A DNA stretch of 64,000 nucleotides. It comes from Raillietiella orientalis (taxonomy: Eukaryota). Location of the stretch: positions 1,860,001-1,924,000 of the forward strand of contig JAYWIR010000009.1 in NCBI GenBank assembly GCA_036172245.1, read 5' to 3'. Shown here piece after piece: positions 25,994-60,199 of this stretch (positions are counted from its first letter, which is position 1; every line of letters begins with the position of its first letter). A model generated the notes under the pieces. The model did no database searches. It saw nothing but the letters and a program-made list of their open reading frames with translations, and had not been told where the DNA came from. Position numbers and translations under genes: made by a program.

Positions 25994-28900
25994 ATGAAGG
26001 CGGACGTGGACGGTCGGCTCACCGGCAAGCGACGCCCGTGGCGCAAGTGCCGGGTCAGGCCCAACCACATCTGGTCCATTTGGTACTGCGTCCTGGCGGT
26101 CACGGCCCAGGTGTACCTCGTCCACGCTGGCATCGACCGATTCGTGGCGCTGACGCACATGCCATGGACCTCAGGTAAGGGGAGAAGGGGAAACCTTCCC
26201 TCCGCAGCGGCTCCTCCCGGGACCCAGCGGGTCGTTCTGCCACCTCCTCCCTCCCTCTTCCCGCGGGTCTCCAGGCAGTCAGTCCTCCCTCCAACGCATT
26301 CCAGGGAACCAGCCATACGTGGAGCTCAACGTGACCGTGGGTCTGATCGGACTGTCCATCATCGCCCTTCCCTGCTTCGTGGTCAGCTCTCTGTGTCAGG
26401 TAGGAGCACCGCCCTTCCGGCTCGGCGGGGGCCCAACCGTATGCGTGCAGATAGGGAATCTGGCCAACGACGGGCGCAAGCTGGGGAAGGGGCTGGAAGC
26501 GTGCTCGTCCCAGCCGGGGCGAGTGGGCCTGCGACTGTACCACCAGGCGGGCCTGAGGGCCCTCTGGCAGCATGGACCTCCCACCGCTGCCTTCCTGCAC
26601 CTCTTCTCGTCTTTCTGCCTGCTGCTGCCCCGCCTCCTGCTGCAGGCGCGCATGATCGAGCAGGGTCTCCTTGACAGAGGTGGGTCACGCCCCCCTTGCC
26701 CCCCTTCCCCCGTGCGAGCGAGTGAGCAGCGACCCCTTGACTTCGCTACTGCGGGGCTCTTCCGCCTCGGGTCGCGAGGAAAAGGTCCCCGAGAGCAGAG
26801 GGTTGGCGCGCGACCGAGAAAAGGGTCCTTTCCTGAGGTCATCACTCAGCACCGTCGTTGCACGAGGTTTGCATCCCAGAGCTGCACGACCAGGGGATTG
26901 GCCCCTCCCGCCCGAGCCCTTCCTGCGGGGCTCCAGAACTTCCGCGCTGGAGGACCCTGCTTAATTCCGGGAAGCAGCCTCTTTTCCGGGAGACGCCTCC
27001 GACGAGGAGGGGGGTCGCCAGGAAAACTCTGGAGACCCTCCCGAGGGAATGGCGTCACCCCTCCCAGCCTTACTCGTTCCCAGTCAGGTGATGCGCATGG
27101 GTGGCCAGCAGAGGGAGGGAGGATCCCTCTCCTTGCTCGGCCATCGCTCCCGACTCCCGAGGTGGCTGCATCGCCCAGAGACGAAGGCAGCAGCGTTCCG
27201 GCGTCTTTCCCGCTCAGGAAGGCCACCAGTTCCTGCGCAGCATCCCTCTCCATCCCACCCCCTTGCCGAAGGGAGAGCGCATGGATCTCCCGCGCGCGTT
27301 CGCCGTCGCCACGCCGGCCGCAGATGTGTACCCCCTCCTTTCCAGAGTTCCTCTGGCGGACTGAGCTGGACTTGATCCTTCCCCATCGCGACCGCCTCGC
27401 CGTACTGGGCTTCCTCTTCGGCTCCAACTCGACGCTGCTGCCGTCCACGGGCTCCTCCTTCCTCGCGTCAGTGGGCGGCTGGAGGCCGTCGCAGGCCGCG
27501 GAGCTCTGGACCACTCACTGGGGGTCCCTGTCTCCGGAGTTCCTGAACCACGCCTTCGCGCACGCGGTGTACGCGGTGGCTTACCCGGCAGTGTTCTGGC
27601 ACACCAGCCGCGTCTTTGCCCTGATCTTCTCCGTGCAGCTGGTGGCCAACGCAGCCTTCAGCCTCCTCGCCTTCTGCGGCTTCTCCGTGCTCTACAAGGT
27701 GCAGGCGGTCGGCTGCCACGCTCTCCTGGACCGCGGCTGCGCCTTCCTCCTGTCCGCCTCCATGACCACCGTCCTCTTCGTGGTCTCGTGCGCCTTCACA
27801 GTCTTCTCCAGCGCCATCGTGTACTTCTTCGGCTACCAGAGGTTCGCGGCATTCCTCCACAGGGAACGCGCCCGCAGGCACATCTTGCTGGCCGGAGGCC
27901 GCGAAGACGTCGCATGGGCCTACTGGCCCCACGTGACTGCCTTCCTGGTGCTGCTGGCCTGGATCCTGTCCGACGGCCCACTCGTCTACGACTGGGTGGT
28001 CGTGTACCGGGGCAGCCTGGACGCAGCTGCGCTGTCCGCGGCTGTCGGGGCGCTGCTGCACCTCTTCCTCTGGATCCTCGTGTGGTTCGTCTTCACCGCC
28101 AGGAACAGCTGGCGCTTCGAGCTGCTCGTCACCGTGGGGCGCACTCACGTGTGGGATGCCGAGAGCGTGGTGCTCGTCAACCAGGTGGAGATGGCTCACC
28201 GCGCAGGAGGTCGCACGATGCCCCTGCTGGTCGTGGGCGACGGCAAGACGTACACCGTCAACGACCCCACCGCCCGCAGGGCCATACTCAGCCTGGCCGA
28301 CTCGGCCGCCGCGGCTGGCGCCCCACCCCGTAGGCAGGAAGAGGATGAGGAAGACGCCGGCGGCGCCGCCGCCCGGTGGGGAGACGGCAGGAGGGTCCGC
28401 CTGGAGAACGTGAGGCTGGGCAGTCGCTGGCTGATGGACGCTTCCTCCGGAGGCAGCGGCGGCGGCGGCGGCGGCGGTCGAGTGACCTTCCGAGAGCACC
28501 CCAAGTAAAAAAAAAAAAAAACGCCGTCCGCGGACGCTTCCAGCTCTCCCTCTCTCCGCTCTTCCAGGACGTGGAGCGTCCGGGCCTACCCGAGGAGGGG
28601 CGACTCGGCCAGCTGCTCTCCGGACGCACAGCAGGATGAGGATGAGGATGATGATGATGAGGAGGAGGAGCAACAGCAGCAGCAGCAGTTCGGGGAGTAC
28701 GCCCTCCTGCGGCGTCTCAAGGAAAGCCCCTTCCACGGCGCCCAACGGTCGGAGATGCAGCAGGTGAGCCCACCAACCCGGCCCGATGTGGCTGCACTCC
28801 TTACCCCTTGCTCCCCAGCTCCTGCCCGACGGAGAGATCCTATCTCCCCGCGAGGAAGTCCTAGTACCCATCTCCAGGAACTGCTGCGCGGGTCCCTCCC

Positions 28901-29532
28901 CCTTGTACGAGTGCTTTGCTGCCCAGCAGTACGACCCGACGGGCTTGTCGCCCCCGGACAAGACGAGCACCGATGGGAGCGAGACGTCCCGCCAGGGCAG
29001 CGACAGCTCCAGCGGCGTCTTCTCGCAGCAGAGCTCGGAGTGCTCCGGGTGCCCCCCACGAAGGGCGACCAGCATCGAGCGGCTTACCGACCCTCCGCGG
29101 GCGTGGAAGAACCTGTCGCTGCCGCGGGGGGCGCCTCCGGAGACGGTGGTCATTCGCAGGGGCCCGGATCTCCCCCTGCCCGCCCGCGAGGAGGACCCCT
29201 ACGGAAGACGCACCAACCTGCGGATGACCTCCTTCCTCGACCAGACGCGCTTCCCGCCCCCTCCCGCACCCCGGGAGTGTCCCCAGAGAGACGCGCGGGA
29301 CGATGTGCCCGTCCCCATGCCCACGATCCACACTGCGTACCCCACCCCCGCCGCATTCGCCATGAGCTGCGGCAGGACCGACGGCTACCGCCAGCAGCGC
29401 AGTCGCCATGACGTCTGGGGGGGCGGAGGCGCGTGCAATACTATCAACGTGGCCTGGAAGGCCTCGTGTCCCCAGCCACTCCTGCGCAGCCACTTCAGCA
29501 CGCTGCCGTGCGCCGCGGTGGCTCACGAGTGA
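25994..29532 (+). CDS. tinc: Tincar-family multi-pass transmembrane protein (about 857 aa); exons 25994-26174, 26305-26399, 26451-26679, 27346-28504, 28568-28763, 28819-29532
   Basis: GT-AG introns join one frame carrying tincar-like motifs: IWSIWY, ELN, IGNLANDGRKLG, LWQHGPPTAAFLHL, LWRTELD..HRDR, SPEFLN, AVAYPAVFW, multiple hydrophobic helices, PLLVVGDGKTYTV, GEYALLR, SSSGVFS, RRATS, TVVIRR, GRRTNLRMTSF. The last exon could hide a further intron. Confidence 0.88.
26850..27250 (-). mobile_element. LINE 3'-region relic inside tincar intron 3
   Basis: Minus strand PDWERVRLGGVTPFPREGLQSFPGDPPPRRRRL resembles the W..IW...V.P..RDFLWR..HG.LP.R.RL segment that precedes the L1/Tx1 zinc knuckle. Confidence 0.4.
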
Positions 29533-37984: not shown

Positions 37985-39009
37985 CCCTAGAAGGAGGGTA
38001 ACGTGGCGTCACACGGCAACGAAAATGAGCTCTGCCACGGTCCGTGTTGCGAGCGTGCCGTTTTAGCCACCTGCCACGAGGTCTTCCGTGTTGCGGGCGT
38101 GCCGTTTTAGCCACCCACCTGCCACGAGGCCTTCCGTGTTGCGAGCGTGCCGTTTTAGCCACCCACCTGCCACGAGGCCTTCCGTGTTGCGGGCGTGCCG
38201 TTTTAGCCACCCACCTGCCACGAGGCCTTCCGTATTGCGGGCGTGCCGTTTTAGCCACCCACCTGCCACGAGGCCTTCCGTGTGCCTGCAACCGCAATGG
38301 CGTGCACATCGGGCGGTTTTGTTTCATTCCGTGCCCGATCGTGTCGTACACGGCACGTTACGTGTCCAAATGTGCACCCGTGGCTGCTCGTGTCCGAATT
38401 TCCACGCAAAATGAACGGGAAGGGTTGATTGGAAGGGGAAACGAATTGAGAAGAGTTGTCGCCTGATGGAGACGGAAATTCGGAAGCAGAGAGCGTACGA
38501 GACGCTGATGAAAGTGATGTGGACGGCCTTTGAGAGCTTTTTATGGAATGTTCGACGTTCGTTGCCTTGGAAATCCAAGTTATGCAGTCGTTTCCGGAAA
38601 AGTGTTTCTTTCCAATTGAGGATACGAGCTCGTAACACCCCACGTGGAGCGCTGGTTGCGATGCAAAAATTTGTCTCGTTCTGTGCGAGATGCGATGCTA
38701 TGCGTACGAAATAAAGATGTTCCTCAAGATGTTCCTCAAGGTGTTCCGCAGGAAGCTTTCTCCGTGCGTAAGCGCTGCGAAATGTGCCCACGTTCCAGTC
38801 AACCGGAAAGGAAGAGAAAAGCGTAGCTGTTGCAAACAGGCGGCCAACAGCTTTATGCTGCGAATGTGCAAAGAACTCATCAAACCATTTGTCAAGAGAA
38901 TTGTCGTTCATGGACAAAATGAAAAATTGTTAAATCTTTATAGAATGTCAATCGGTGTCCTTTATGGCACCACATTTGTGCACGGCATCGTCGCGTGGCC
39001 CTTCTAGGG
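37985..39009 (+). mobile_element. Non-autonomous (internally deleted) piggyBac element, 1025 bp
   Basis: Perfect 10-bp TIR CCCTAGAAGG (37985-37994)/CCTTCTAGGG (39000-39009), flanked by CTAA and TTCA (each one change from the TTAA target). A frameshifted cysteine-rich-domain remnant RKRCEMCPRS...MCKE/HQTICQENC lies at about 38767-38904. Confidence 0.8.
38032..38283. repeat. 48-bp minisatellite, about 5.3 copies, inside the piggyBac element
   Basis: Unit GCCGTTTTAGCCACCCACCTGCCACGAGGCCTTCCGTGTTGCG(A/G)GCGT repeated head-to-tail with few substitutions; the first full unit lacks 4 nt. Confidence 0.95.
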
Positions 39010-41923
39010 TTCAATTTGCTTGACAAACCTCAAATTCATAGTTCCATCTTTTGCTCATTGGGGCAAAAGACTGAGTCAGAGAGTGAAGGTGGTGAAAAGA
39101 GGATGGTGGTGGTGAAAGGTGGGTCGCAACTGATGGTATCACAGTTCTGCAACGGCATCTTAGCTGATTTGCAACGGAAGAGTTGAAGGAACGCGAGTGG
39201 AACGTTTTGTTTCCGACCAAGTAAACTGACTTGAGATAAAGATCAACTTTCTATGGCTCAAGTAATGTTGCCCTGTTTGCTAATGCCCAAGCAATGTCGG
39301 CTCATCAGAGTATGGCCTAAACTGCTTCCAGTTAAACAAGCGAAGTCACCTATCTTCTTGAAAAGGACTTCTTTAAATCGAATTCAAGATTTTCTAAACT
39401 TTTCATGGAGTTTCATTTGAATACATTCAGAATTCATTCCCACAGCGAATCGCCGTAAACAAAAACAGATATTCTCCGTGCGTTATCTTTTAGCAGTGCA
39501 CTCTTGAGCTTCGGGGCTCGGTGCAGCTGAGATGCATCATCATCCAACTGTGCGTTATTTTATACGCATCACTGATCAAATTGCCATATGCCATCCCCTG
39601 GATCCAAGGAAAACATCTATTCGTACACTCAAACTTCACAATAAATCAAACAAGCATTCCAAAGGGTGCATTATCAGTTACCTCCAGTTTTTTTTTTTTT
39701 TTTTCTGTGTGTGTGTGTGGTTCCTTCTCTTTTCCGTGAATCCGTTATGTTTTTCCATCACACTTGGTAGCTTTTGCAATTGGGCGAGTATAATTTACAC
39801 TTTCCAAATTCACACCTTGCAATTTCTGCCTCTGCTGCCTTCGAGGGAGCATTCAGGCAACACGGAAAATAGCACATGATGTCTGACATGCGCGTCTTAC
39901 GTTGGCCGGAAGCTGGAGAGAGGAGTGGTGGGAGCCCTTTCCTCGGACAGGGAAATTACGAGTTGCAGACCACAGTCAGGTGACGTCTTCTTGTTTCCGA
40001 CTTTTCTCCAATAGTGTATGCTCTTCAAAACATTGTACTCTCGTTGATGGTTCTCGATGGTCGCAGTGCGTTTCTGGTCCAAAGTCGCTTGCACTACTGT
40101 TCGCAGATGCCGGGGAACCGATTTCACGTCGATTGCGTGCGATTCATCGCGTGGGCAGATGGGATGCAACTCGGTCCTTGTCATCCGTATGGCATTCCGC
40201 TCGCAACACTAAATTCCGCCTTAGAGGATCCCCAGTCTTCAACTGAAACGGTCAGCTATGTGCGGCCACCAGGTGTGATGAATGAAACGGGTGCAATTAA
40301 GTCTGGATGAATGCAAGTGGCAGAGCTCGTGTCTCATGCCGTTTCCACACGGCAACAGAAATTCGTGACCTCAAGTGGATGGCAAAGCAGAAAGGTTCGA
40401 GACAGTTTTTGATGATTCTCGTTTTCGAATTGCTTAACAGATATTTGTTGCGAGCGCCATCACAGAGTAAACTCCTATTTCCTACTATCTTAACTTCCTT
40501 AAGTGATCCGAGTAGGTTCTTACAACTTATAGGTTCTCATAGGAGTTGCCTCAGCCAGCCTTAGCTTGGAAGAACGCCGCCCTACGAAAAAGGAAGCTAC
40601 ACATGTCTTTACTCATAGTAGGCAAGAATCCTGAAAACCGCTTTTCACTGTCGACTGCTACGGTCGTTAAGAGATTCCACTCAAAACAGAAGTGATCGTT
40701 GGCTCAGATGTCATTTTCTCCTTCTTTGCACTCACAGAAATCTGCAAAAGGAGCCTTCTTCCAGATGCTGAGGTGATTCAAAAGCATTTCGAAATTAGAT
40801 TTAAAAACAAAATGAAGCACAAAAAAATTCCGCAACCAAGTATTCAGGACCTCCAGGACACGACGCAAATGAAGATACAATCGAGTTCATTAGTTAGTGT
40901 GGCAGTATCAATGCATAAAAATTCACAAACAGAGTAATAAGAGTTTTAGCTTCTTTATAAAAAATTTTTTAGCCGTGCCCTTGTAAATACTTTCTTATTT
41001 ACTGGAGCAATTTTTCCTCACGATTGATCTTCCGTTGCTCAGAGTTATGAAAGCATTTCAGAAATCAATTTTCTATTGCTTTGCCTCGAGTGATACTGAG
41101 ATGTTGTTACGAAGACATTTATCACTGGTTCTTTTGGGGGATACGTGTTTTCGTATGTTTTGTTTTCCTTTATTTTTCGTGAATGTTCGTTCAAAAACAG
41201 AAGTTTTTATAGGATGCGGTAATCAATTCTTAGTCCAATTTTACTGCAGCATACGTCATTTTTGGTATGGATTCTGGCAGCAAGGGATACGGATGTGTCC
41301 CCTTTTTCGGGGTGTATTTGCACGGTCGATTCCATTACTCGCGTAGCAACTTTGGAATATATGATGTCAGCAAAGCTGGACAAATCCCATGAGAGAGAAA
41401 AATAAATGACCGAAAGGGACATTACATGAAACAACAAAGTTTTCCATAAAAACAGCAGTTCCAAAACATCAAATACAACACAACGCATATGCCTCATACA
41501 GAGTTGCCAATCGCAGCACCTTTTTAGCGGCTCGTTTTTGGTTCCACGAGCATCCACAAATTAACGCTGATCAAAGACATTTCAGGAATTGGAAGCACTC
41601 CGTTTCGGTGGAAAACGTTGCTGCTTTTGCTTTTGCTATGAAAGTACGTGGGAGAATCAAAACGTTGGGCATCCTGCTCACCGTGTAATAAGCAGATGTA
41701 AAAGTCTTTTACTTGTCTATCATAGTCGAGGTTTTCACTGAAGGCAAGAAACGACTGCGGTTGCCGTCATTCGTAGGTCATGTCATGTAAAAGTGGTCGG
41801 ATCGTGTATCTACGGTGCATCTTTATAAATCTGTAGAATTTTGTTGAAAGATTTTCAGAAATGGCTTGTTGTCATAAATTCTATGAGTAGATCTAATGGA
41901 AATCTGAAAGGGTTGAAACCGGC

Positions 41924-41960
41924 AGTTTAAGAACAAGACTATCTATCTTGTTCTTAAACT
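41924..41960. repeat. Perfect 15-bp inverted repeat with 7-nt spacer
   Basis: AGTTTAAGAACAAGA ctatcta TCTTGTTCTTAAACT. Confidence 0.9.
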
Positions 41961-42393
41961 AGACGTGTGGTTCCCTCCATATTTTCCTAAGATGTCGTAA
42001 TTAATAATTCGTGACTCGTTGATAAATAACATAACATAGTATATGAAGTGTATGCAGTGCATGCCATCGATGGCTTTAAGTTATAGTTACTAGCCAAATA
42101 ATTTTGATATTCCAAGTAATAGTCCAAGTAACTTTGATTCGCTATTTGGCAACTTCCTTTTTTGCCATCCTTATTGAGTTTCTTACATGGTTTTTCATGT
42201 TTGTGGTTTTTTTAATGTTTTTTAATGAATAGAGTTGCTATCGGTTCGTGGAATGGGTTTCCGTTCCATTAGAATGGAACGCAGCTGTGAAGTAGCTCTT
42301 GCACGTTCATTTCCCAGTACCATAGGAACAAAAGATAAGGCAAGGTTTTGTAGATTTCAGAATAAACGCGTTACGTCAAGACTCGTACTCGTC

Positions 42394-44250
42394 ATTCTCA
42401 TTAATGTATTAATTCGTGGGTGTTTCCATGTGGCATTGGCAGGTACGTGGGTTTGGATTATTTCCACATCCCCTCGTTAAGTGGTGATTTGCATTGGTGT
42501 TAAGCAAAATGTGTGAACTAACAAAAACAGCAATAAAAATAAGCAAAAAACCAACTTGTGACCACATAATCCTTCAACCAAACTTATTCTGCTATAAAAA
42601 CATCTGCAATGAAGTTGCTCCTGCAATGATTTTGCCCGTTTAGCAGGTATACGTAGGGAATTTATGGATATCTTTAAAATATTCCAGTGCAGGGAAATGA
42701 AAAAGAATCAATGTGCAGTAGCTGCACCTCATAAGCAGGGCGCCTTGTTTTGAGTCTATTTTCTCCAGAGAATGATATGGCCTATGTAAATGTTTCCACT
42801 CAAGGCAGGTGATTTGCAAAAAATAATGTACAGTTTTAGAAATTGCTAACTGGTTTGCTAGAGGACTTTTGTTTTTTTGTTGGTTTGCTTCTTTGGTCTA
42901 GATGAGGACTTCATTAAGTCTGTTGGGCATTGACATTGCTGTGGGGTTAACACATCACACGGCACAAAACAAGAGGTGCATTATTATGTAGCCGTTGATC
43001 ATTTCAGTGCTTTGTTCCTACTCACCTGTAACAAAGTGTGGGAGCAAGCACTGCTTTTAATCAAAAAAACGGTACTTTATTAAATTCACATGCTAGCATC
43101 ATTAGCAAGCATGCAATATAATATTCTGCAGGTCTTCAAATTATAAGAATAGTGCATGAAAAGAATATAAAACCAGAGCAAATTGTTTAAGTCAGTCTTA
43201 TGCTGACCTCTGAATTGTTTATAGTATTATTGTGCTGATGTGCTCACATAAGGGGAAACAGATAGTTGGCATCTGAAAGTTCAAATCATCATAGAAAGTA
43301 GTGAGAAAATAGGTTCTAGGTACTGACAAAACATGTTTGGGTGAATACTTTTCTTTGAGATTTCTTAGATGGTTGGATTCTACCTCTTATGAGGAATGAA
43401 CTTCCAAGATGTTGACTGGTTTAGGTATACTGCTGCTGCTAGTAGCATGAGCTAATTTCAATCCATAAAATGTCACAAATGTGCTGCAACTAATATTCAG
43501 GTAAAACAACATGGGGGTAGCAATAAACAATCAAGAGTTTCAAAAGACTGTCAGCGTTTGCATACTACCACCATCTATTCCCAGTAAAGCTGCAAAGCTT
43601 GCTTGTTTTTGTGGTCTATCTGTGAAATGGTAACTACATAAGGAATGTGCTGTGCTATATGTTATATTTGCATGCACGAATGTTGCTAAAGTCTTGTCAT
43701 TTCAAAGACTGCTGGTAGAACACAGCTCTGCTGTTAGTTTTTCTTCATAGTGGTACTGGCAGCTGCTTAGTGGCTTGTTTCTTTCCAAGCTTCTTTCTTT
43801 CCTACCTGCAATTCGCAAGTTAGACCTCATCCCACTGAGAGCTGCGTGCATTGTTCTGTGCCTAAAGTCGGACAAGTTCAAAAGCTTCCTGTTAGGCTTC
43901 CTTACATCACCTGTTACCCTCCAGCATTTTGACACTCTGGCTCAGAGGTGACACTGGAGAGCTGTGAGATGCTCCTGGAATGCATCTGTGGCTTCTCTGA
44001 ATCTCTAGGATACTACAGTGTTCTGTTTTCAGTCTGCATTCACTCATGTTTAGCTGCTACTGGACTATTGCTGTATTCGTGCACAATTGTCGCTCCCACA
44101 TATGTGGTTTTCCTACTGAAGCAAATGTTGACTAGACCTGTAATGCACCAAAGTGAAATGAAATGGACGTGGGTACGGCTAGGGTTGGTATTACCAAAAA
44201 TTTGACCCCACACCCTGAGATTCTGGAAATTCGCGGCAGAGAGAACTTGG
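42394..44250 (+). ncRNA. Candidate structured long non-coding RNA / small-RNA host gene
   Basis: TTACGTCA (42371-42378), Inr-like TCATTC (42392-42397) and donor CAG|GTACGT (42443). A strongly CpG-depleted block follows, with many hairpins using G-U pairs on the + strand and no credible ORF. Confidence 0.4.
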
Positions 44251-44599
44251 AGAACATTCAGCAAGATAGCGACATCCTGTACCGTACAATCGCCAGCTCC
44301 CTTTTATTTGCAACACAGATTTATCTTTGCGCGTATTTCTTCAGTGATGCTTTGTTCCAGAAATTATGTGAAGGAAAAGGGCTTCTGTTTATTGATCAAT
44401 AGAAAGCATAAAGAAATGCTATGAGATATCAAAACAACTTTAAACTCCTAGGAGGACAGCATTGGAGGACACCAATTCCGAGGACAGCGTTTTTTCCTTC
44501 TTGTGATGAGAATCAATCCGTAGTCATGCTTATGCGGCACAGGATATGCAATATAATGTCAACACCGGATGTGGACTCGTCATTATGAAGGAATGGATT

Positions 44600-45300
44600 T
44601 TTTCGGTGCTCATGGATAGTCGCGATCGAATCGCAAAATTCTTAAGTCCGTTTCATATGAGAGCAAAAAGAAAACTCGCTGAGGATTTTTGAAGGTGCGT
44701 TTCCACATCATTATCATTGTACCTTGTATACCGAAGATGTCAGACCTTTCCAGTTTCATGCTCCTTTGAACGTGTAGGTTCTGTTAAGTGGGCAAATGCT
44801 GGGAGGGTCAGAAACCATCTCCCGGTCGACCAGATTCCTTCTGCCGCAAAGAGATGGTTTTGTTGTCGAGCAACCTCTCAAAAACCGACGGGAGATTCGA
44901 TTTATCTGTGCTTTCTCCGATTGAGATGAGTCTCCATCCAGCTGCTTCAGTCGCTGGAGGAGAAGACTTAGGTATTGAGACAGTCTGCTTCCACTTTTCT
45001 ATATTCCTCATCTTCATGCCAATGTTCAAGATGGGAGTCGAGAACTCGGCGTCTGGGTCTACAGTTTTCCATCCCGCATCAGCCACACTGTTCCCTTACC
45101 ATTGCCAAAATCCTCATTCTTCATCCTGAGGACATCAAAAACTCAAAACAACCCAACAGCCAAAGTACCCGTAAACAAAGAGCATCAGCCAACGCCATCA
45201 TACTCAGACGAAGAGTTCTCTGTGTCTTAAGATTTCCGCCTTAAATGACGTGAAATCGATGGGGAAGGCGGGGCCTTCTTTTCCGATTCTTAGGCTCCCA
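44600..45300 (-). mobile_element. Degenerate non-LTR RT fragment (R2/NeSL-like)
   Basis: EKWKQTVSIPKSSPPATEAAGWRLISIG (~WK...VLIPK..P....WRPISI), followed by TDLRILRFD (~LD..AFD). May extend upstream toward about 48.4 kb. Confidence 0.55.
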
Positions 45301-48300
45301 CGGAGGAGCGGGCTTATCTGGTTCCAAAGTGTTAAAGAATGGCTCCTTGACGGCGGGACCGGAATGTGACTTCGAATCTCAGTGCATCCAAAAATAGTTC
45401 CGGTCACCTTTTCTGCAGCTGATCCGAATCTTTGAATTTCGGAGGTGTTCGTTGGATCCAACGCTTTGTATAGAGACACCTCTCGAGGTGGCTTACTGTT
45501 AAGGATGTCCCCTTATTTTTTCCATCAACCGGAACACTCGTGTCATAAATGTATGCCAACACGTCCACCCTCCACCATTTCTTGAAAACGAACCCTCTCG
45601 TTTGAAAATTCTGAAGATGCATGGTTTCTTTTTTATTCGTGTTGACCTGGACGGAGTTTGCTCGTTCGGAGAGCCCGCTTTGGCTATTGGCTCCGTTTGC
45701 GAATTAGCTGCTTTCATCGTTTCAACCGGATACTCCGTGGCGCGGTACAGATTATAGTGCGCGTCCTATAAAAAGGGCTTTCATCCTTCATCCCCTTTTT
45801 CTGGGAAAACACGAGGCATAACATCAGCACAGTTTCCCTCCTGCTGACTCGATTCCAGGAACGTCTGCGGAACCCTCTCTTAATTCTACTGTTGTTTCAA
45901 AGGAGTCACTGTGCGGGCGTGCGCTAAGATACCCCAAGCGGCAGAACTCGGGGCTCCCTTGCCTTCCCGATAAGGTGCTTCAGGAATCTCTTCTGGATTC
46001 TCATCTTCTCTAAGAATATTCGAGACTACCTGCTCGGTTTCTGTACAACTGCCCTCGGAACCGCTGGTCGTTGCCGAGTCCGTCGCAGTCAACTTCGTCA
46101 TTACTTCTTATGAATGCGTTGAGATCATCGTAAATCTTCATGGAGCCAGGTTATTTCGGGTCGAGGAGCATCCTGTTTTTTAATATTTGTATGAATCCAC
46201 GCCGTTCCCGGCTATCCTTTGTCAGATCGATGACGACGGTCTTGTACATGTGGACCGCGTGGGATTTTCTGCATGCAGCGTGTCAGCGTAGGTGTGGTAC
46301 AGCGGCTGGCAATGTGACGAACTATGCAGCGTTACTTTTTCAATGGCCCGTGTAAATGTACGATTTCTATTTAAGGGCTCACCCAGTTTGCAGGTTCCAG
46401 CATATCTATCTAGTGAGGCTTTTTTGAGCACGGAAGACAACCTTAAGAAACGTTTCGCACAAAATTTATGGGGGTGAAAATCTCAAAATTAGTCATCAAG
46501 GTAAAAATTACGGACCTTGAGTTCCCGGGTATTCCGGTTATGTCTGCTTCAAGAACTTCAGCTCAAAGCTTCCTTCGTTACTGAAGAAGGGGGAAAACTC
46601 CCTGTCTTTTATGCAAGCACAGAGGAAGCAATCAGTTGCAGCAAGAAAACGTAATAGCCATCACATTGCCTACTTATTGCCCAGATAAAGTCTCATCGGC
46701 ATCGACTTCCTTTTGTGAGAATGGTCAAATGATGAAAGTGCGATCTAAGAGTGTTGCAAGTCATTTCGAAATTTTGGAACCAATGTGAAGTTCATTTCGT
46801 CGAACCACGAGATGCTCATGTCCAAGGTTTTCCTGGCTACAGGAAGGCGTGACTCATTTTTCTTCATGCCCAAACCGTGATCTGTATGACTGGCCGATTT
46901 CGAAGCATGAATACAATGGTGCACCTTTTCGGCATCGGTTTCACCATTTCTTCCGAGCATTTTTTTTTTTTTTTTTGCGTCAAGTGCCGAGGCAGACAAA
47001 TGGAAACTGGAAACGCTGTTTCCCATAGACAGTGACGGCTGATCCCTGAAAGTTTCACGGAAATTAGACCGTGAAATTTTGTGGGAGGAGATTCGAAAAA
47101 ATCTCAGCCTTTCACGAAACTTTCCTAAATAGGTGACTCGTTCGGACTTTAAAATATGGGCAAAACGAAGGTACAGAAACGCCACTGCTTACTCCTGCGT
47201 GCCTGATCTGCAACGGCTTCCATTCTCGGCATCTCCCATGTCCTTACGTGCGTTGTATTGGATTTATGGAATCATTGAACGTAAACAGCAAAAAAGGACA
47301 TAGCTCTGCTTCCTAGTGCTCGATGCTTCGTGTTTCTTGCAATGCTACGTGTTCCCCTTTGGATCGGCTTCATTTGGTTAGCCCCAAGAATTCTTTTTCA
47401 AAGCATGCCTTGTCTCCTATGGTCTACTCCTGTCCGAAATCCTTGTTTTCGAAACACAAACACAGGCAAGGGCAGATTCTAGGTTCTACATGCAGCTGTC
47501 ATGTTGGCTATTCTTCAATACTTTCCAGATAAGAAACCAGAGATATCGCCATATCGGGATTCCAAGTGACTTTTCAGGATTCCTTGTTTTCTTACTCTGT
47601 TTTTTTGTTGAAAGTCTGAATCGATAGGTTCACATATTAATGGCCTTTTGGATATGTCCTCTTCCAACGCCACCCACTGTCCCCATCCATGGAGAAATGA
47701 GACGAGCCACTGTGGGGCCATCCCATGGTGGCAAGGCAATGGGTCAATCGGTTGTAATCGACCATGTCAAACACTGCTGTCAGATCTAATGATCAGTTCA
47801 TCGGATGCACATCCTCGGAAGAGACTCGAAAATCAGAAGACACATGTTCCGATAAAGCAAGAATGAGAACAAGATGCTAGGAAACGAAATCACTGGTCCC
47901 ATGCCCCCTATGAATGAGGGTCCCGCCGTTAGATTTTCAATGTATTTAAAATGCCTTGAACTAGCTTCTCTGTGCCGTTACTCCTCGCCGCTGGAACCCT
48001 GAAAAATGCAACTAGCGTTTTCGGCTGTTTTCGAATCAGCTGGAACGGAGAAGCACCCGGGTCTTTCAGAAGGCTGTCGTGGGTCGCAGCGTGAAGACTG
48101 CACAGACCGCAAAAGGTTGCCTTTTCAGTGCCATGACGGAGCACCGGGGAGACGGAATACTTTCGTACTCGAATTCTTGTAGAGTGTTGGAAGTGGTCTT
48201 CCAGGATCGTTAACCCGAGTTTTCGTCGTGTGGGGCAGCAACGTTGAGGGAGACTGCCGTGAGCGGTTCGCTTCCAAGCACCGGGACCGGACCAAGGACT

Positions 48301-48975
48301 GCTGCTGTAACAGCCAAATAGACGAGGCGAGACCCCTATTTGCGTTTCCTTTTCCTCGATTCGTGAAAGCCAAATCATGGAGAAATTGCTTTTAAAAGCA
48401 CTCTTATCGCTAATTGTGCACATAGGTTAGCATCATAATGGCTGCGCTTGGTTCAGTAAACCTGGTTCGACTTTGCCGCTTGTTCACCAATTTACTAGCC
48501 ATATCAAAAGGCGCACAAATCCTTTGAAACTCTGGCGTCATGAACTGAGCTCTGCCCAGCTTTGAATACTGAAAAAATAGGCTCACCACTTTCTGTACCA
48601 CCTGTTTACTGCTGTTAAAAGCATGGAAGTCAGCAAATAAAAATACTCCTTTCATGAAATATTCTATCTATAAAACAAGTCATCCTGGCGTTTTGGAAAC
48701 ATTTACAACCTTGGTTTGGATTTCATATTGGGCACCACATCCATGCCTGGATATCAACCTCACAGTCCAGGACATTAACAAAAAAGCTACAGATGAAGGG
48801 AAGCAACTCATTCATTTTATGTTTATTTTGTTGCATCTGAGAAAACGGTGCACAAGGCATGAAAATTTCCGGAATCCTATTGATCCTATTGATGCTTCCA
48901 TTTTGGATCACTGTTCACCATCAAGAAAATCAGTATTTCTTGACTAGAAGTATTGTATTGTGTGCTGCTATGATT

Positions 48976-50182
48976 TCAAGAATTTTCTTGAAGGTTCCTT
49001 ACAAGTGTCTGTGCATGTGTGAGCTCTGAAAGGAACACAGAAGTTTAAATGAACTTGTTCTTGGTGAGATACCAGTGTTCACCTTTCAGAAGAAATCCGA
49101 GTTGGGTGGATGAAAGTTGAAATGAAATGGGCACACTTTCTTTCTGAATGACATCAAACGTCTGCAAGTACAGTGACAGATTAAACTCATTTCTAGATTC
49201 TCTAAGGTCCGAATCAATGATGGCATCCGATTTCCAATACACTTTCTCCAAGTAATTTACTACATGCATATCAGTACAAATATGAGGTCTTCCCAATTGA
49301 TTCCAACTTACACTTAAGCTTGTTTTTTTCAAGAACAGCAGCAATTCTATCATGGAAATCTTTGTACACAGTACAAAGGGCAGTTCCATGTTCTTTGGGA
49401 AATCCTAACTGCTGTAACTCATTATTGAGGATCTCTGCTTTAACATTATATTTGACTGATGAGTTGAGAATAAAAATGATCACAGAGATTATGATATGAA
49501 GCTCTGAAACTTCTGAAAAGTTCCCACATAATCCGAACCATCCATATACATGAGAAGAAAAAAACCTACGGATTTCCCATTCTGATGCCAACTGATTCAA
49601 TTTTTGTTCCTTTTAATGTGCCACAAAAGTAAACATTGTAAACATATTTTCTTACCAGCACAAAGACGTCCTCTTCGATAATTAACTTAGCTGCATATTG
49701 ACTGATTAATTTCATCTTCGTGAAGGTCTAAAAGCAGAGCAAAGTTTTTGATTTTGATGACTTTTACAATTGGAAAAATTTCTGCAGACCTACACAAGAA
49801 ATACCAAACAGCAACTCAACACAGAAACCTACTCACCAAATAAGAAACAAGTGCAGTCTTGGCCAAAATCCATTCAGGACACTCCAATTCACCACAGAAA
49901 TAAAATCTCTGAAATGTAATGCACATTCAACGTTGATGTTATGTGCACTCACTTTCACTAACTGTAAAAAAAAACTCTTACAAACACTGGGTTCCTAATT
50001 AACAGCGTTTAATCAGCATCCACATAAGCGATAGACTATTGTCATCAAGTGAAATTATTTCTCCCATAATCACGAGTTACTGCCGGAAAAATTAACTTCA
50101 TAAGGGCGCAAACTTTTCGACATCGCACCGCATTCAGGGTTTCGACTTTGGACATTTTCATCCCAAAACCTAAACATACCAT
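48976..50182 (-). CDS. COMMD4: COMM domain-containing protein 4 (about 204 aa); exons 50182-50180 (ATG only, putative), 49908-49837, 49727-49656, 49609-49570, 49512-49312, 49259-49083, 49025-48976
   Basis: GT-AG splicing gives (M)RFYFCGELECPEWILAK...FILNSSVKYNVKAEILNNELQQLGFPKEH...VYWKSD...FLLKELTHAQTL, matching COMMD4 (MRFRFCGDLDCPDWVLAE; ELQQLGLPKEH; ELKQAQTL). The start exon ATG|GTATGT is inferred and less certain. Confidence 0.92.
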
Positions 50183-50559
50183 TGCAGGAAAGGATGTACT
50201 TTTCTTCTTTTCCCTCGGAGGAACGGTGGAGAAACAAAAACATGAACGACCAAAGCAAGCTCCTCTTCGGCTACTTCATGGGGAGCCGCTCACCTGCCAC
50301 TGCTTGGTCTTTGGTTCCCCCGACGGAAGACTCCGAGTTTCTTGTACAGCCGCACAGAAGGTCGTCGCGAAAATCTCGCTCAGCGGTCAGAGCTGCCATG
50401 CCAACTTTTGAAATAAAAGTTAAGTTGGAATTCGAAAATACAATATCCGCCTGCTGCAAAGACCATGAACTCTGTGGTGGCAACGATGCAATCAGAATCA
50501 TCCTCGGTGCTTCAGCTTCGTATTTTGGCATCTAACCAAGCTTGAGAGATTACCAATGG

Positions 50560-52899: not shown

Positions 52900-54500
52900 C
52901 GACTTTCGAGCGATCTTCCATTATATCGATCAGCAAGTTCCTCCTCAAGATTCTGGAAGTGTCCGATCTGCTAGACAGTCTCCTTACCTATCTTTGCTTC
53001 AGTGCAGAGCAATAACATCCATCTTTTTAAGAAGGGTGCCCACGCAATACGTCCAATGGAAACGCGAATCAGGTAGGGAGATGGCCCGAGTCCCATATTC
53101 TTCAGCATCTTTTTTCGAATTTTTTCCATTGGTGTTAGTCTGTCCTCTAAACTGTCTCCCGTCTTATTTCCCTTGCAATGGGGCAGAGGCCTAAGCCGGT
53201 GTCTATTTCTTTTCATCCAAGGACACTGACGCGACCTTGGACGAACCGTTCTTCCAGTTAATCTCCCGGGCAGAGGACATGGACATCAATCGAAAGTGCA
53301 CCGATGGGAGCGTTGTAGGATGGGCAGCCGGAAGGAATCTGCCCCCGTACCTTCGTAGTCAGTACGTTCAAGTATCTCGAAATGTTCATGAGAGCTCTCT
53401 CCGCGAGCTCCTCGTATAAGCCTGGTCCAGCTGCTTTCAAAAGGCAAATTACCCGGTTGCTACGGGTATTTTGTGGCAGTTTTTTGCTTACAGCATGAAA
53501 GTACACATTCTCCGTAGAAACTGTCTTCAACCGGGTTATGGAGGTAGGGAATGACCTGCATTCAGTCCACTCACAGAGACAGAGATTCGATGTCATCAAG
53601 CAATAGTAATCTAAATACAAAATAAATAATTAATAATGGGGATAAGAGTTTGGAGTCAGCAGGGTCCAGCCTGATTTCCGCAGAGATTCTGGGTAATGTG
53701 GACAATTTTCTTTTTCATTGTTTCTTCCATTTGTGGCCATTTCGACGCTTACAACAGCGGAAACTGTGTTCAAGAATTGTCTTCACATCAGTGATAAAAT
53801 TTTCCTTGCAGTCGTACAATCACAATGTTGCAGATGTGGCCCCATGATACTGGCAGGGTGGAACCCTACTCCTCTTTAGCAGGTCTTCAAGAGAGGTGTG
53901 TAGTCGCGGCAGGTTCTTGCTGGACGCCTTCAACTTGCAAGAAGGGAACTAAATTCCAGCAACTCATGAAGAGTTGATCCCTCCATTCTACACACGGTTC
54001 CAGACTAAAGATGCTGCTGCTTATTGCATGGGAAACTCCAGTGCAAGAAGAGCACCGATAAACGTTGTGGACTTGATGGAGCACAGAAATGTCTGTGCAC
54101 ATACATACTGTACGACACACAGCGTCTCCTCGGCCTTTCGAAAACAGTATAACCAACCAAGGCCAGATCTGCACAAAGAATAGATTAGTCCCCACGCTTC
54201 CGTCTGGAACAGCACAATTCTGCTCAATGCTGACCAAGGATTCTTCTACCCTTTCAAAGAGTCCATTCAACAGCCTCCGGAGCAGCTTGAGGTATGAGTT
54301 CACTAGAGTGTCGTGCACAGACTGCCCAGATTGCAGGTGACATGAAACTTTGGCTGAGCGGAAGGAAGAGAGAATTTGGCCTGTTTCTTCAAACAGTAGA
54401 ATCAGCTTCTGCATCTGGAGACCTCGCTCCGCTGCGAAGTAACGGATGAGTTTCAATGACTGTCACAACTTCTCCTGATGCCTTTTACCTCTTAAAAGTT
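52900..54500 (-). mobile_element. Degenerate L1/Tx1 RT region (probably extends toward about 56 kb)
   Basis: TLVNSYLKLLRRLL..LVSIEQNCAVPDGSVGTNL (~LLN.DYKIL...LI..DQ.C.VPGRSI..NL), VPFLQVEGVQQ (~GVRQG), WKNGSSKVASVSL...GLGL. Confidence 0.7.
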
Positions 54501-56641
54501 CCTCTGGAGGCGGTAATTTCAGCCACTGAAAACGGTTTGCCAAGGCGTGCATGTTCCTGCTGCTTGATAAAGGAAGCGTCCTTCTATTGCCATTGATGGG
54601 AGCTCTCTCCAGAGACGCCCTTGCATATAAGGAGGAGTAAAAGCCGCACATGAAAATTCACACTACGGCCGAGAGAGGACACCCCTGCTGTCGTTCGTCC
54701 AGCGGTCAAGCTTCCCAGAATCGCAGACCTGCCTTTTGGCTTTGCTCTTTCTGAGCAATCTCAAAAGGCGGCAGATTGCTTTCTCATCAAACCCGATCGG
54801 TTCAGAGCCTTCAAGTTCTGAACTGATGCCCACATAAGGTCATGCATGTGTCGTCCACGCAACGGTTATCTAGGATCCCACTTTTGAATCTGACGACGGA
54901 GGGTGCGAGGCAAGTCCTTTTTCGCTTGGCTACACCTCCGTTGCCAAAATCGTGCGTCTGCCCGACCAAGGCTTTGGATTAGGCAACTTCACTCTGCGCT
55001 GCACCATTCAGTTTTCGTACTCTCCTCCATCCACTTCTTCCATCTTGGCGGGGTCATGGCAAGAGGCACATTATTGGGGGAGAACCTTCGACGATAGGTT
55101 TGCGCCCACCTGATCACCATTTTCTAGGTGGAGATCTTTGCCAAGAGTCGCGGGTACTCACTTGTTTTCCGAGGAGTAACCCTTAGCGGATCCTCTCCAT
55201 CCCGCGATTCCGTCTTACACGTGGAGTTTGGATGGCTGGCTTAGGAGATGCGGCTCTCTTGTACCCAGCTGGCCGCAACCCCGATGATTTTATAGAAATT
55301 CACCTGTGTTCGAGATGACCTGTCGCTCCTTACTAGTCACATGTTTCTCGCTTCCTGACAATCGATTGGTCGATGATGCTCCCAGAGTTTGTGGAAAGGC
55401 TCCCTTTACGACCACTGTTACTCGCTACTGTAGCCCGCTTGCTATACACTTAGATGCTGTACACACACATCGTGTGTGTACAGCAATCTGCGCCAGAGCA
55501 CGTGAGCGGCGACAGTTTTTCAGAACTGCCATGGTCTGCTGGTCTATCATCTTGGGCTCAATTCCACTCAGGTAGACCATGAATGTGGTCCTCTAGCACG
55601 GGGAAAACTTTCCGTCTGCGTATGCTCAGGATTCATCGTAAACACTCATGAGAGCTGTGTCCTTGCTCAAGAGCTCGTAAGCAGTACTCCTGCTGAACAT
55701 TTATTAGACTAGAGGAGTCCTTCCTGCCCACCAAATCTTTAAAGCTTGTTAATGAGCCGGAAAAAAACATCCGTTCAAGCGAGATGATTTACTCTGTAGC
55801 GAAGTAAGGCCTATACTCTTGAGTTATCGATACCTACATCTCTGCACTGCCCAGAGGACCACCGTTGGTCGCTGCTGCCGAAGAGAAACTTATGTGCACG
55901 CTTGGGAGAAAGGGCAGGGGGTCAAATGACCTCGGCATTTCTCCTTGAGGCATCCTCGCTCTAACAGTGGGAAACTCCTTGCTTCATCAACATCCATTGT
56001 GAGAGACAGCAACTTTACAAGGCTGGCCTCACCTAGCCGTTATCATGTTGGCTGTACGATTACCGCACACAAGAATACGCAGGGGGACGTTGCCGAGGGC
56101 AACACATCACTCCATTAAACACTTCATGATCAAAGCTGTGACAGCGAGATAGGGATACAAATGGATGCCAACAGGGATCGAACGGCAAGCCACCTCTGTG
56201 CCCTTCATCCGTAACTACAGGAACAGACCGTTTCGGACGTTAAGGATGAGGCTCCATGGAATAAGAACAAAGAGTAAGCGATGTGGCAGTTGCCGTTTTC
56301 CTCGCCCATACATCACCGTCTCGTTTTCTCCTTAATTCATTTCACACTATTCAAACAGATACTCTCAAACTTAAGACAACGGCAAAAAGGACCGACAGTC
56401 AGTGAACTTATGTTATAAAAAACATTATTATTAAGACAGGAGTCAAGCAATCAGAAATATATTCATACAATTATCATAGATAATAATGCATTTGTAAACC
56501 GGAAGTGACAATAGGGAAAATATGTATTATCACTGTAAACTACCACTAGCACTTGAGAACTGCCATGATGCCCAATTTTCTAAACATCCTTCAGCGAATC
56601 CAATAAAATAAATAGCTTGCTTAGGTTATGAAATAGATTTT

Positions 56642-58862
56642 TTATTCCACATCATCTTCAATCACGGCCAAAGGAAGACCTGAAGACTCCACCAGTTTCT
56701 AAAAAAATACCTTATTTCTCCAGACATTCCCTTCAAATAAATAACGGCATTACCTTTCCCACTCTAGGCAGCTGCTGAAGCACAAGGTGATATATATTAG
56801 GTGGCAGAGTTTGTTGTAGCACTGCCATGAGTTGCTGTGGCTGACCACAGACTGCTACTGCATTACTGAGATGCTCAGCACCAGTTATTGGATCACCAAG
56901 AGCAAGAAATTCTTCTCCGAGTTGTACCTGATGGCAATATAAGGATGGGAAAGAGAAAGAAAGCAAGAAAAAAAAAAAAAAAAAAAAACCTGTTCAATGA
57001 AAAATCTCTGAAGAGCTTCCTGATCTTTCAAATCAGGTAATTTTGTGGGTTTTTTAGAAGCTAAAGCCTCAGCTTTGCGTGTGCTGCGCTCTAAAAAACA
57101 ATCAAAATCATTCCAAAAATAAACATACAAAAGTTCGCTGCGAAGCTTATTTCAATTAGCACACAAAAGTTATCAACACACTCTCTGAATCTCTGGTGGA
57201 TATCATTCTGTATTACAAAACTTCAATGATCATGCACTGTAATTATTCTTCTTCATTTCTATTTCATTTTGTTTTCTATTATCATTTCTATATCTAGGAA
57301 TGCAGGTCGGACTCATTTATTTGGAATTGATTTATTGATTCATACACTTTAAAGATCGTTAAAATAGGCAATTAAGACAAGCAAACAACACAAAACACAA
57401 ACTGCTTCATACTTATCACACAATAAACTTCAAAACTTTGATTACTTCAACTTTACTATGAACTACTCAAACTTGAAAAAAGTTGAAGAATCAACATGAC
57501 AATACCTGACAATACTAAGTTACTATTAGTTGCTAAACCATCCATCAGTTCATCATTGTATTTTTCAGATAATAAACTGTTTATGAATACTTGATATTAA
57601 ATTTCTAAATAAAATTGGCCTACATGAGTAACCTCAAAGACTAAGCAAATGACTCATTTTTACTAAAGAAAAAAAAAAAATCCTTGAAATTCCATCACAG
57701 ATTGGTGAAGCATGTTCTCTTTTAGTGCAAATGCTGTTCTCAAATTAAAAAATGAAAAACAATCACATACATGAAAACTTTAACAAGTCACTTCTCTATA
57801 GCATTTTTCCATGGGATCTTCAATGTGGTGGAGTTCCTAATTAGGCAAAAAGTTTAAACTGTTTAGAGTCAACAATAACATAAGAATGAGTTATATCACA
57901 ATGCATATTACATCAACCATAATTATAAAACAATGAACACGAGTAGCAGAGACACTATCAACATTCATGACTTTTAATTCCGTAATGGAAATGTAACAAA
58001 CTTACAGACATACAAAATAATTTTATGAAAATAATGTATCTGTCCTACATTCTGTTTGTTTGAGAAAAAAAAGGTTCACTTCACATTTAATCTTCACAAA
58101 GATTTCTGGAGTTCCGATCTGTTTATTTTGATTGAAAACAAAAAAACAAGATGTTATTATTTTCACTATATTACCAAAAATAACCAATGATATTGTATTA
58201 AATAATACAAAACTCCATGTTCTGGATAATATCTTGGAACAAACTAACCACTTGCTTTGTTTAAAACCATAATGCCCATGGACCGTTTGCTTCAAACCAC
58301 TACCTGGCACTAATTTAGAATAAATCTGAACTTGACACAAGCATTGTATTTATAGTCTGACTAGATCACACAATGAATTACTACACTACCATCTGACACA
58401 TCTGACTATTATGCTTCACATAATCATAATATTCAAGTGGTTGCAACAAAAAATTCACTTATTAACGCTTCACTTTTCCCGTCTCCATTATTCTGTGAAG
58501 TTTTTGCAAAGCTATAAAAGATGCTATCACTTATATAACAAGCAATTGGTACTATCACCACACAATCGCAAAAAACAATTTATACCAGATTGAAGATAAT
58601 TTACGGATCGAATTTTTGCAAATTGCAATCACAAAAGTATTATTTATGGATTGTGACATGTGAAACAATGTAATATCCAAACTCCTGCATGTTCCAACGC
58701 ACAAAAGAAAGCAATGAGAACTTGAAACTTACTCTGTCGCAACTTTTCTTTAAACATCGGTTCGTTCCTTCTTTTATGATCGAAATATACACAATAGCCG
58801 ATGAATAAAGTACCACATATTCCTGCTGCAATACCAATTGCTGTTGACAACGAATTAGTCAT
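56642..58862 (-). CDS. TOMM20: Mitochondrial import receptor subunit TOM20 (153 aa); exons 58862-58733, 57090-56990, 56927-56754, 56698-56642
   Basis: Spliced product MTNSLSTAIGIAAGICGTLFIGYCVYFDHKRRNEPMFKEKLRQK...LPDLKDQEALQRFFIEQVQLGEEFL..GAEHLSNAVAVCGQPQQL...LQQTLPP...EDDVE*, typical of TOM20. All introns are GT-AG and in phase. Confidence 0.97.
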
Positions 58863-60199
58863 CTTGGAAACATATAACAATGTGGACTCTGGAATTTTTT
58901 TCTACATGCTGCAATCGTTCCAAGAGAGCATCCACAGGGTAGCCACACCATCAACTCGACACTCGATTTACGCATTGAAAGTCTCAAAGCAATTATTTAA
59001 TTTTCTCACAGTAACGAAAATTTTCAGATATCTTACACGAATGTCTTGTGTGATGTCGAAGTTTCTCTTTCCAAAATGATATGAAGCAAAATTTAGATTA
59101 AAAAAAAAAACAAAGAATCCCATAGACGATGTGTCTGCTCACAGATATCCAGTTAAATCAAAAAAACAGTTTTTATGTTCTTGAATGTATGTCATTCATA
59201 GCATCAAATTCCCTTTCGAAAATATAGAACTATACTTGAAATTAATATATCTTTTTCATTTATACATGTTATATAATACATTTTACATGGCTCATCGATC
59301 AGATCATTTTTTTTTAGTCCTCAGATTCGTTTTATAATTTTGCAAAATCATGCAAACAATTTAGTCACAAAGTTTTCTAGAAATGGTATACAGATATTCT
59401 AAAGAGCTAAGAAACAGTTTAATATTGCTGTATAAAAAAATAAGTTCACGGTGTTTGCTGATGTTGAAAATCAAAACAAAAATTGCAAATGAGTTTATCG
59501 AATTTTTTGCGTAGGAATCATTAAGATAGGAGATTTTCAAGAACAAAAGTCGAAACTCCATTATGAGGAACTGAAACAGACGAAACAATATCATGAATGT
59601 AGAGGAATTACGGATTTTGGTATTAAGAAGTTTTGATTGCAAGACGCTAGCAATCAAATAAAACTTGTGTTAAACAAGGAGTGTTGATGTATCGAGATTG
59701 ATGAACGTGGAAGATTGCTAATACGGTTTAACTTTTCAACATCATTCACATAAAGTCTGTTGACATTTTAGTTGGTGAGTCTGCGAACAAGTCAGACTGG
59801 TATGTGAATTGAAAAGAAGCAATGTCCTTGCCTTTTTACCACTTATTATTTATGGAGGATATACATGTTGAAGAGGTGTTGATGTCTTCTTCTTTCAAAT
59901 GAATCCTTAAGAAATTAAGCAGGAAACATTTTTGTTTATTTTGAAAAGATCATTTCAGGAGTAGTCATCTCAGGAGTAGATTGAAATACTGAAACCTGCT
60001 TTTCCAAAATTGATTTCTATTTTCTTGAGCATTCATTTTTTTTTGATCAGTTGACTACGGATCTCCTGCACTATTTGAGGAATACGCTTGCTAAACTGTA
60101 CAGTAAGTACAAAGCGTATTCGGAATTTATAATCAGAGTGAGGCTTGCAATACTCCTTGGAAAAATTACGTGCTCAAGTAAACAGCTGGACAGATTGAT

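Follow-up and report, generated by a model that had tools for sequence, protein, structure and literature searches.

The locus and its surroundings

The window, a stretch of 64,000 nt from the genome of Raillietiella orientalis, carries at 42394-44250 a CpG-depleted block of 1857 nt, the features of which are collected in Table 1. Two genes on the minus strand, COMMD4 (about 48500-50400) and TOM20 (about 56500-58900), lie in the same window, and the identity of both was confirmed by Pfam. The housekeeping genes of this genome are AT-rich and CpG-poor and have introns of about 40-60 nt; their exons can be short. An upstream exon of COMMD4 was read at 50294-50399 (minus strand) as an ATG-initiated frame of 35 codons that runs up to a strong donor; by our reading, this frame does not join that of COMMD4. 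Large GC-rich open reading frames of a multi-pass membrane protein, with normal CpG content and no Pfam family, occupy 26154-29532; we take them to be tincar-like. Neither the frame at 47640-47792 (minus strand), which by eye presumably resembles a LINE reverse-transcriptase motif, nor the open frame of 191 aa at 53887-54462 (minus strand) has a significant Pfam match.

Table 1 Features of the CpG-depleted block and its edges (positions in the window; o/e, observed/expected)
Feature	Position	Strand	Remarks
Small CpG-rich shoulder, left edge	42242..42476	.	13 CpGs; candidate unmethylated promoter/first exon (putative role)
Candidate first coding exon	42253..42442	+	ATG at 42253, hydrophobic stretch near the end, coding log-odds +6.5
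TTACGTCA (42371) and TCATTC (42392) motifs	42371..42397	+	Present; pair not enriched genome-wide
Candidate intron, 204 nt	42443..42646	+	Donor 5.9 (training median 4.9), acceptor 4.1, frame kept
CpG-depleted core	42476..44075	.	GC 39%, CpG o/e 0.20, TpG/CpA odds 1.45, GpC odds 1.46, single copy
Candidate second coding exon with stop (42753)	42647..42753	+	Coding log-odds -1.5
Best local hairpin	42988..43076	+	-30.1 kcal/mol, pre-miRNA-like shape, single copy, more stable on +
AATGAA, candidate variant poly(A) signal	44157..44162	+	Right edge of the depletion (putative role)

In a DNA search of the 210-Mb genome the block matches itself alone; with this tool a missing match does not prove rarity, and repeats of 64-75% identity in the flanks were recovered by it. 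No second copy or parent was found with one read-through frame against the genome, nor by local blastn and tblastn in some 0.7 Mb of fetched sequence. The copy-number check proposed by an earlier sequence-only reading of this DNA thus ended with one match, the block itself, and with no domain of a mobile element, so that a multi-copy transposon is not indicated.

The repeats checked near the block are mostly CpG-normal. The copy at 38500-39018 has an o/e ratio of 1.2 and eight relatives range from 0.79 to 1.17; it has an inverted copy of 99% identity at C9:1838802-1839320 as well as many further copies at 64-75%, and a short tandem array with units of about 60 nt is located upstream of it, at about 38040-38290. 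The family of the repeat at 45076-45195 is CpG-poor (about 0.4) in that copy and in two of four relatives, over just about 115 nt; its many copies are 88-97% identical and some form inverted pairs on other contigs. An inverted repeat with perfect 15-bp arms around a 7-nt spacer ends next to CTAG at 41924-41960, 500 nt left of the block (folding z -3.6), and could be a tiny transposon end.

CpG depletion as a mark of gene bodies

Between 42481 and 44160 only 13 CpG dinucleotides are observed against 63.7 expected (o/e 0.20, Poisson p about 1e-14), while the flanks reach 0.92-0.95; the edges of the core (Table 1) were set by maximum likelihood. Both the count of 13 and the contrast with CpG-rich flanks had been reported by the sequence-only reading and are borne out, as is its statement that the bodies of COMMD4 and TOM20 share the depletion (o/e 0.30 each). 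Among 719 windows of 1680 nt from the fetched DNA, a set that takes in windows overlapping the block itself, just two are equally low in CpG. A gene-sized loss of CpG together with a gain of TpG/CpA, by which a gene-body-methylated transcription unit is recognised, is found here, and the size and edges of the block resemble those of gene bodies as far as the sequence tells.

How often such blocks belong to genes was counted in 464 kb, comprising the window and further fetched DNA. Gene evidence exists for 15 of the 17 CpG-poor blocks of at least 1.2 kb (five by Pfam, ten by a gene-model score of at least 11), and for this reason CpG depletion is, judged by these sequences, a good marker of transcribed genes in this genome. 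Orphan blocks are uncommon, not unique: besides the present one there is C9:1976701-1978201 (2700-4200 in the handle L107). None of the 24 open frames of this second orphan has a Pfam match above the cut-off, a gene-model signal is absent, and its dinucleotide profile resembles that of the block (GpC 1.48, CpC 0.75) without likeness in sequence. Just to its left, at about L107:2390-2630, is a long AT-rich inverted repeat that looks MITE-like by eye.

The left shoulder of the block has a comparable counterpart at the right edge (44168-44333), and with shoulders at both edges the left one does not fix the strand. The CpG profile of the 5' and 3' flanks, taken as a strand cue, is likewise symmetric at the block. 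In most of 14 oriented CpG-poor genes on the contigs C9 and C4, CpGs are more numerous in the kilobase past the 3' edge than in the one preceding the 5' edge, as read off bins.

Coding potential

The longest stop-free stretch of the block comprises 90 codons as compared with a shuffle mean of 95-98, and the lengths of stop-free and stop-poor stretches show no excess over shuffles (p 0.11-0.60). Pfam gives no significant family in the six read-through frames nor in 63 open frames of at least 22 aa, while COMMD4 (E 4.5e-13) and TOM20 (E 2.7e-15) were found by the same route. The best match in the block, FYVE with E 0.0094, lies below the cut-off and about 0.6 such matches are expected; the cysteine pattern at 43456-43584, which resembles FYVE/Jiv90 (E 0.0094 and 0.058), was put down to chance. 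A gene finder self-trained on 33 loci of the genome, with its housekeeping introns of about 40-60 nt, yields z values over local shuffles of 0.7-1.1 on the plus strand and 0.7-1.8 on the minus strand (1.8 at one prior), compared with 4.0-7.2 for the controls COMMD4, TOM20 and a K2P channel. Three of five real control genes were detected by it, and EI24 and IPPT were missed. The coding training set has a CpG o/e of 0.50, the block 0.20. Strong donors, acceptors and short-intron pairs occur at chance level on both strands of the block and in a PUS1-like control; they are enriched in COMMD4.

Homology searches gave the same picture within their scope. There was no match with phmmer against 1.84 billion representatives (one of the six frames), none among PDB sequences (two of the six frames, best E 1.4 and 2.9) and no usable one for two open frames in the ESM Atlas (recognition 1079 and 1643). 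A word-based protein search with two read-through stretches found nothing either, and this blank carries little weight because a COMMD4 exon used as control was equally blank. A stop-poor frame on the minus strand at 43222-44001 (261 codons with five stops, four of them TGA) was considered as a decayed ORF or a selenoprotein and rejected, being equalled in 11-17% of 300 shuffles. RRM-like and mitochondrial-presequence-like readings, both made by eye, are unsupported by the Pfam and gene-model tests. With ORF lengths, Pfam and gene finder all near the null, the earlier description of the block as ORF-less, with no protein from the splice combinations tried, stands as far as these tests reach.

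The most coherent small ORF has 98 codons (42253-42753, split by the candidate intron of Table 1), one hydrophobic stretch and an overall coding log-odds of 5.0; homology support for it came neither from the word-based search nor from the ESM Atlas or Pfam. It would place the CRE-like and Inr motifs inside its first exon.

Folding and helix content

The block had been described as heavily base-paired and as a possible novel structured lncRNA, and folding against shuffled controls had been set beforehand as a check whose failure would count against the proposal. With 12 shuffles of the whole block per strand, the minimum free energy (MFE) of the plus strand is -494.3 kcal/mol as against a shuffle mean of -506.6 (z +1.12, 11 of 12 shuffles as stable or more), and that of the minus strand -443.7 against -448.5 kcal/mol (z +0.58, 8 of 12). 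The halves folded apart give z -0.52 and +1.64. Counting both strands, z falls below -2 in four 150-nt windows within the block; windows in the flanks fold equally well or better (z -4.1 at 41850 and -3.2 at 44700). Watson-Crick helices of at least 8, 9 and 10 bp number 32, 12 and 1, compared with 33, 8.8 and 2.5 in 40 shuffles. Neither whole-block folding, nor these helix counts, nor the best hairpin thus exceeds the chance level of dinucleotide shuffles, and with this check the claim of heavy pairing fails and that of a structured lncRNA finds no support.

The helix arms listed by the sequence-only reading do occur where it had put them, except that TTGTCATTTCA begins at 43694, one base off from 43693. 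When five of these helices were looked up at six start positions in the whole-block MFE structure, just two were present there, AGATGC/GCATCT and, in part, the GGGT/ACCC nest; the nest folded alone has z +0.63. The bulged 16-bp helix 42723/42980 is equalled in 6-7% of 150 shuffles, and in a local fold its second half takes another partner, the enclosed 276 nt being at z 0.02. The hairpin of Table 1 reaches z -4.3 if cut out post hoc, and one as good turns up in 28 of 100 blocks after local shuffling and in 12 of 54 control gene pieces; a 21-nt word of it had no match in metagenome contigs.

Helices of at least 6 bp with G-U pairs number 4401 on the plus and 3305 on the minus strand, where the shuffle means are 4223 and 3060. 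The preference of G-U pairs for the plus strand, which had been taken as a strand signal, is therefore compositional, being shuffle-like. The excess of G-U-inclusive helices of 6-8 bp over shuffles is small, 1-2 sd on the plus and 2-3 sd on the minus strand (about 2 versus about 3 sd at best), and larger on the strand that the sequence-only reading did not favour. The TGCA palindrome has 22 sites in the block, close to the 17.5 that the dinucleotide composition by itself would give. The block looks base-paired by eye because CpG decay leaves TpG and CpA, which are complementary, together with TGCA palindromes; the failure of the structure claim against shuffles is a caution for other CpG-decayed DNA rich in TG, CA and TGCA.

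Known RNA classes

A search of Rfam, which had also been suggested, finds no family at the gathering score in the whole 64,000-nt window. Up to E 10 there are three matches in 41500-45000, all below threshold, among them a weak snR11 match on the minus strand (E 0.053; 20 bits, where the gathering score is 42); no miRNA family appears in this range. As a miRNA host, the block offers a hairpin of suitable shape at 42988-43076, which has no Rfam counterpart and a frequency in shuffles as given above.

The telomere of this genome is (TTAGG)n, with 211 perfect units reaching the end of contig C13. The minimal criterion for a telomerase template is given as a permuted C-rich repeat extended by at least 1 nt (PMC9841428). 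The longest match on the plus strand, 5 nt, is below it; the minus strand has three 6-nt template-like words in 2.3 kb, by a rough estimate about what composition predicts. A simple scan, run without a positive control, yields no H/ACA two-hairpin candidate on the plus or the minus strand; of 30 shuffles, 15 yield one. The 3' H/ACA domain of telomerase RNAs of the non-insect animal type is not found in the block. For C/D guides, C and D boxes with an rRNA antisense stretch of at least 10 nt before D or D' were sought; the targets were confined to the genome's own 18S and to a 28S pieced together from partial copies. This gave no candidate on the plus strand and on the minus strand one 10-nt stretch (two targets), compared with 0.9 per shuffle. 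Five loose SECIS pattern matches have no clean helix and no SECIS family appears up to E 10; a selenoprotein mRNA was rejected on this ground and on the lack of a Pfam match in the read-through frames. Judged by the Rfam, C/D, H/ACA and template searches, the proposals of a snoRNA host or a telomerase-like RNA find no support.

RNase P and MRP RNAs (RF00009 and RF00030) have no match in the block, the genome's copies lying elsewhere. The RNase P RNA (C34:1525755-1526045, minus strand, L154) is situated in DNA strongly depleted of CpG, either inside a predicted protein gene on the same strand or directly behind it, and the RNase MRP RNA (L153, contig C1) in CpG-normal DNA. In insects and crustaceans the RNase P RNA is Pol II-hosted, and the setting in C34 is consistent with such an arrangement.

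Promoter motifs, strand and ends

The CRE-like and Inr-like TCATTC motifs that had been noted just before the block are present, and as a pair they are not enriched: the pattern has 25 genomic matches as compared with 49 for a backwards control, and two of the 25, one being the present site, stand where a CpG-poor block begins. The strong donor reported at 42443 is confirmed as the first base of the candidate intron, with a score above the training median. The AATGAA hexamer at the right edge occurs near the TOM20 3' end as well. Both this hexamer and the donor would fit a plus-strand unit.

Other strand cues diverge. On the plus strand of the block TpG (164) exceeds CpA (125; p 0.025). A non-coding strand model favours plus by 9-16, a coding Markov model minus by 8-18 and a mixed model minus by 5-8, and the flanks carry plus-strand biases as large as those of the block. 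In our judgement the plus orientation is somewhat favoured.

Interpretation of the block

With modest confidence, the block is best explained as the methylated body of a Pol II unit that is small and present once; its product would be either an lncRNA lacking structure or a short-ORF mRNA with a long 3' UTR, for example the 98-codon ORF followed by a 3' UTR of 1.4 kb. From the sequence we infer transcription, strand and methylation of this unit. Transcription would be steady in the germline and run, with the plus strand as the likelier one, from about 42250-42400 to about 44180. CpG methylation of transcribed housekeeping-type gene bodies is established for invertebrates and would extend to the block, which steady germline transcription by Pol II would keep methylated. 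Deamination of methyl-C would then have removed about 80% of the CpGs and left TpG and CpA, a scar that goes beyond the level of the neighbouring coding genes, presumably because no codon constraint guards the CpGs. The helices would be what such a composition yields by itself, as the shuffles suggest. From the earlier proposal of a methylated, transcribed ncRNA gene, methylation, probable transcription and the lack of a long ORF seem reasonable in the light of the base rate of 15 in 17 and of the negative coding tests with working controls; heavy structure is the part that is unsupported.

That the block is instead a fast-evolving spliced protein gene with short exons, on either strand and invisible to the searches, appears rather unlikely. 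The same base rate speaks for such a gene, as do the short introns and exons possible in this genome, the minus-strand preference of the coding Markov model, the minus-strand gene model with z 1.8 at one prior and the reach of the searches, in which a COMMD4 exon was missed by words, phmmer covered one frame in six and the gene finder overlooked two of five controls. It is opposed by the empty Pfam results in all read-through and open frames, where the same route recovered COMMD4 and TOM20, by gene-model z values far from those of the three controls, by chance-level ORF lengths and short-intron pairs, and by a CpG ratio under that of the training set. A non-transcribed relic, whether a dead gene, a detached COMMD4 UTR or an old, silenced mobile element that lost its CpGs during a methylated state, would account for ORF, structure, splice and promoter signals that do not rise above chance and for the repeat fragments in both flanks. 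It is nevertheless improbable, as no second copy or parent was found in the searches of the genome and of the fetched DNA, and as the 4.3-kb spacer between the block and COMMD4 holds one 115-nt repeat among the 39 of 80 candidates scored; a COMMD4 UTR detached by young insertions is accordingly not indicated. A dead gene is less likely also because its CpGs should have come back over the long time that the loss of every frame takes, unless methylation went on.

Positive folding z values on both strands, a hairpin that shuffles often equal, the lack of an Rfam family at the gathering score, of H/ACA candidates and of plus-strand C/D guides, a minus-strand C/D count at shuffle level and a plus strand without a 6-nt template word for (TTAGG)n make it very unlikely that the block is a structured functional RNA or a small-RNA host, be it for the miRNA hairpin, an orphan snoRNA or a telomerase RNA precursor. 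What such an RNA has in its favour is the pre-miRNA-like shape and plus-strand stability of the hairpin, the bulged 16-bp helix at the 6-7% level, the modest excess of short G-U-inclusive helices, the three template-like words and the snR11 match, both on the minus strand, and the RNase P RNA as a probably Pol II-hosted ncRNA in CpG-poor DNA of this genome. Foreign DNA from a CpG-poor donor, a host animal or an RNA virus, inserted in the contig could explain a dinucleotide profile at the edge of the genome's range, the GpC odds being matched by 5 and the GpA odds by 3 of the 719 windows. Native CpG-poor genes have much the same profile (CCT1 region, GpC 1.52 and CpG 0.23), no viral or other Pfam domain was found, and the CpC/GpG odds of the block are low (0.85), which is unlike vertebrate DNA; such an origin is hardly credible.

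If the small Pol II unit is indeed transcribed, it is an unannotated gene of housekeeping type that was overlooked by homology and is flagged here by CpG decay, which is useful for annotation and not surprising. A bolder and improbable extension is that orphan CpG-poor islands form a hidden class of housekeeping genes, constitutively expressed, methylated in the germline and either non-coding or coding for microproteins, of which a genome would contain some hundreds at the rate seen here, and that the block would encode an essential product. This could be the 98-residue membrane microprotein or the precursor of a small RNA absent from libraries; CpG decay would then find such genes without RNA data, perhaps even the missing telomerase RNA of this lineage.

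Comparison with known systems

Telomerase RNAs have so far not been identified in many ecdysozoan lineages (PMC12133305). With the animal and insect telomerase RNAs described in PMC9841428, PMC11892584 and PMC12133305 the block has in common that it is a single-copy, putatively non-coding locus and that the telomeres of its genome are (TTAGG)n; it differs from them in having no template word on the plus strand, chance-level 6-mers on the minus strand, no H/ACA domain and no folding signal. The U snoRNA host genes, as represented by Drosophila Uhg4 in PMC9710044, are non-coding Pol II units of housekeeping character, as the block may be, whereas here neither a snoRNA nor an enrichment of short introns was found.

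Closer is the likeness to methylated lncRNA genes of insects. For bumble-bee lncRNAs a gene-like breakdown of methylation over exons and introns is described (PMC10492822). The block could be such a non-coding unit with gene-like methylation; transcription and methylation are measured in the bumble bee (PMC10492822) and predicted from the sequence here.

Invertebrate methylation targets the bodies of compact, broadly expressed genes, and the low-CpG genes of the honeybee are compact and of broad expression (PMC2975444). Compared with low-CpG housekeeping genes the block has no recognisable ORF or intron pattern and a deeper depletion (0.20 against 0.30 in COMMD4 and TOM20). It shares with the honeybee type, as described in PMC2975444, and with COMMD4 and TOM20 a compact gene-sized stretch that is poor in CpG and rich in TpG/CpA between CpG-normal flanks. 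The block is predicted to work like a gene-body-methylated housekeeping unit, and it is probably an ordinary gene, unstructured and non-coding or for a tiny protein, and not a structured RNA of a new kind.
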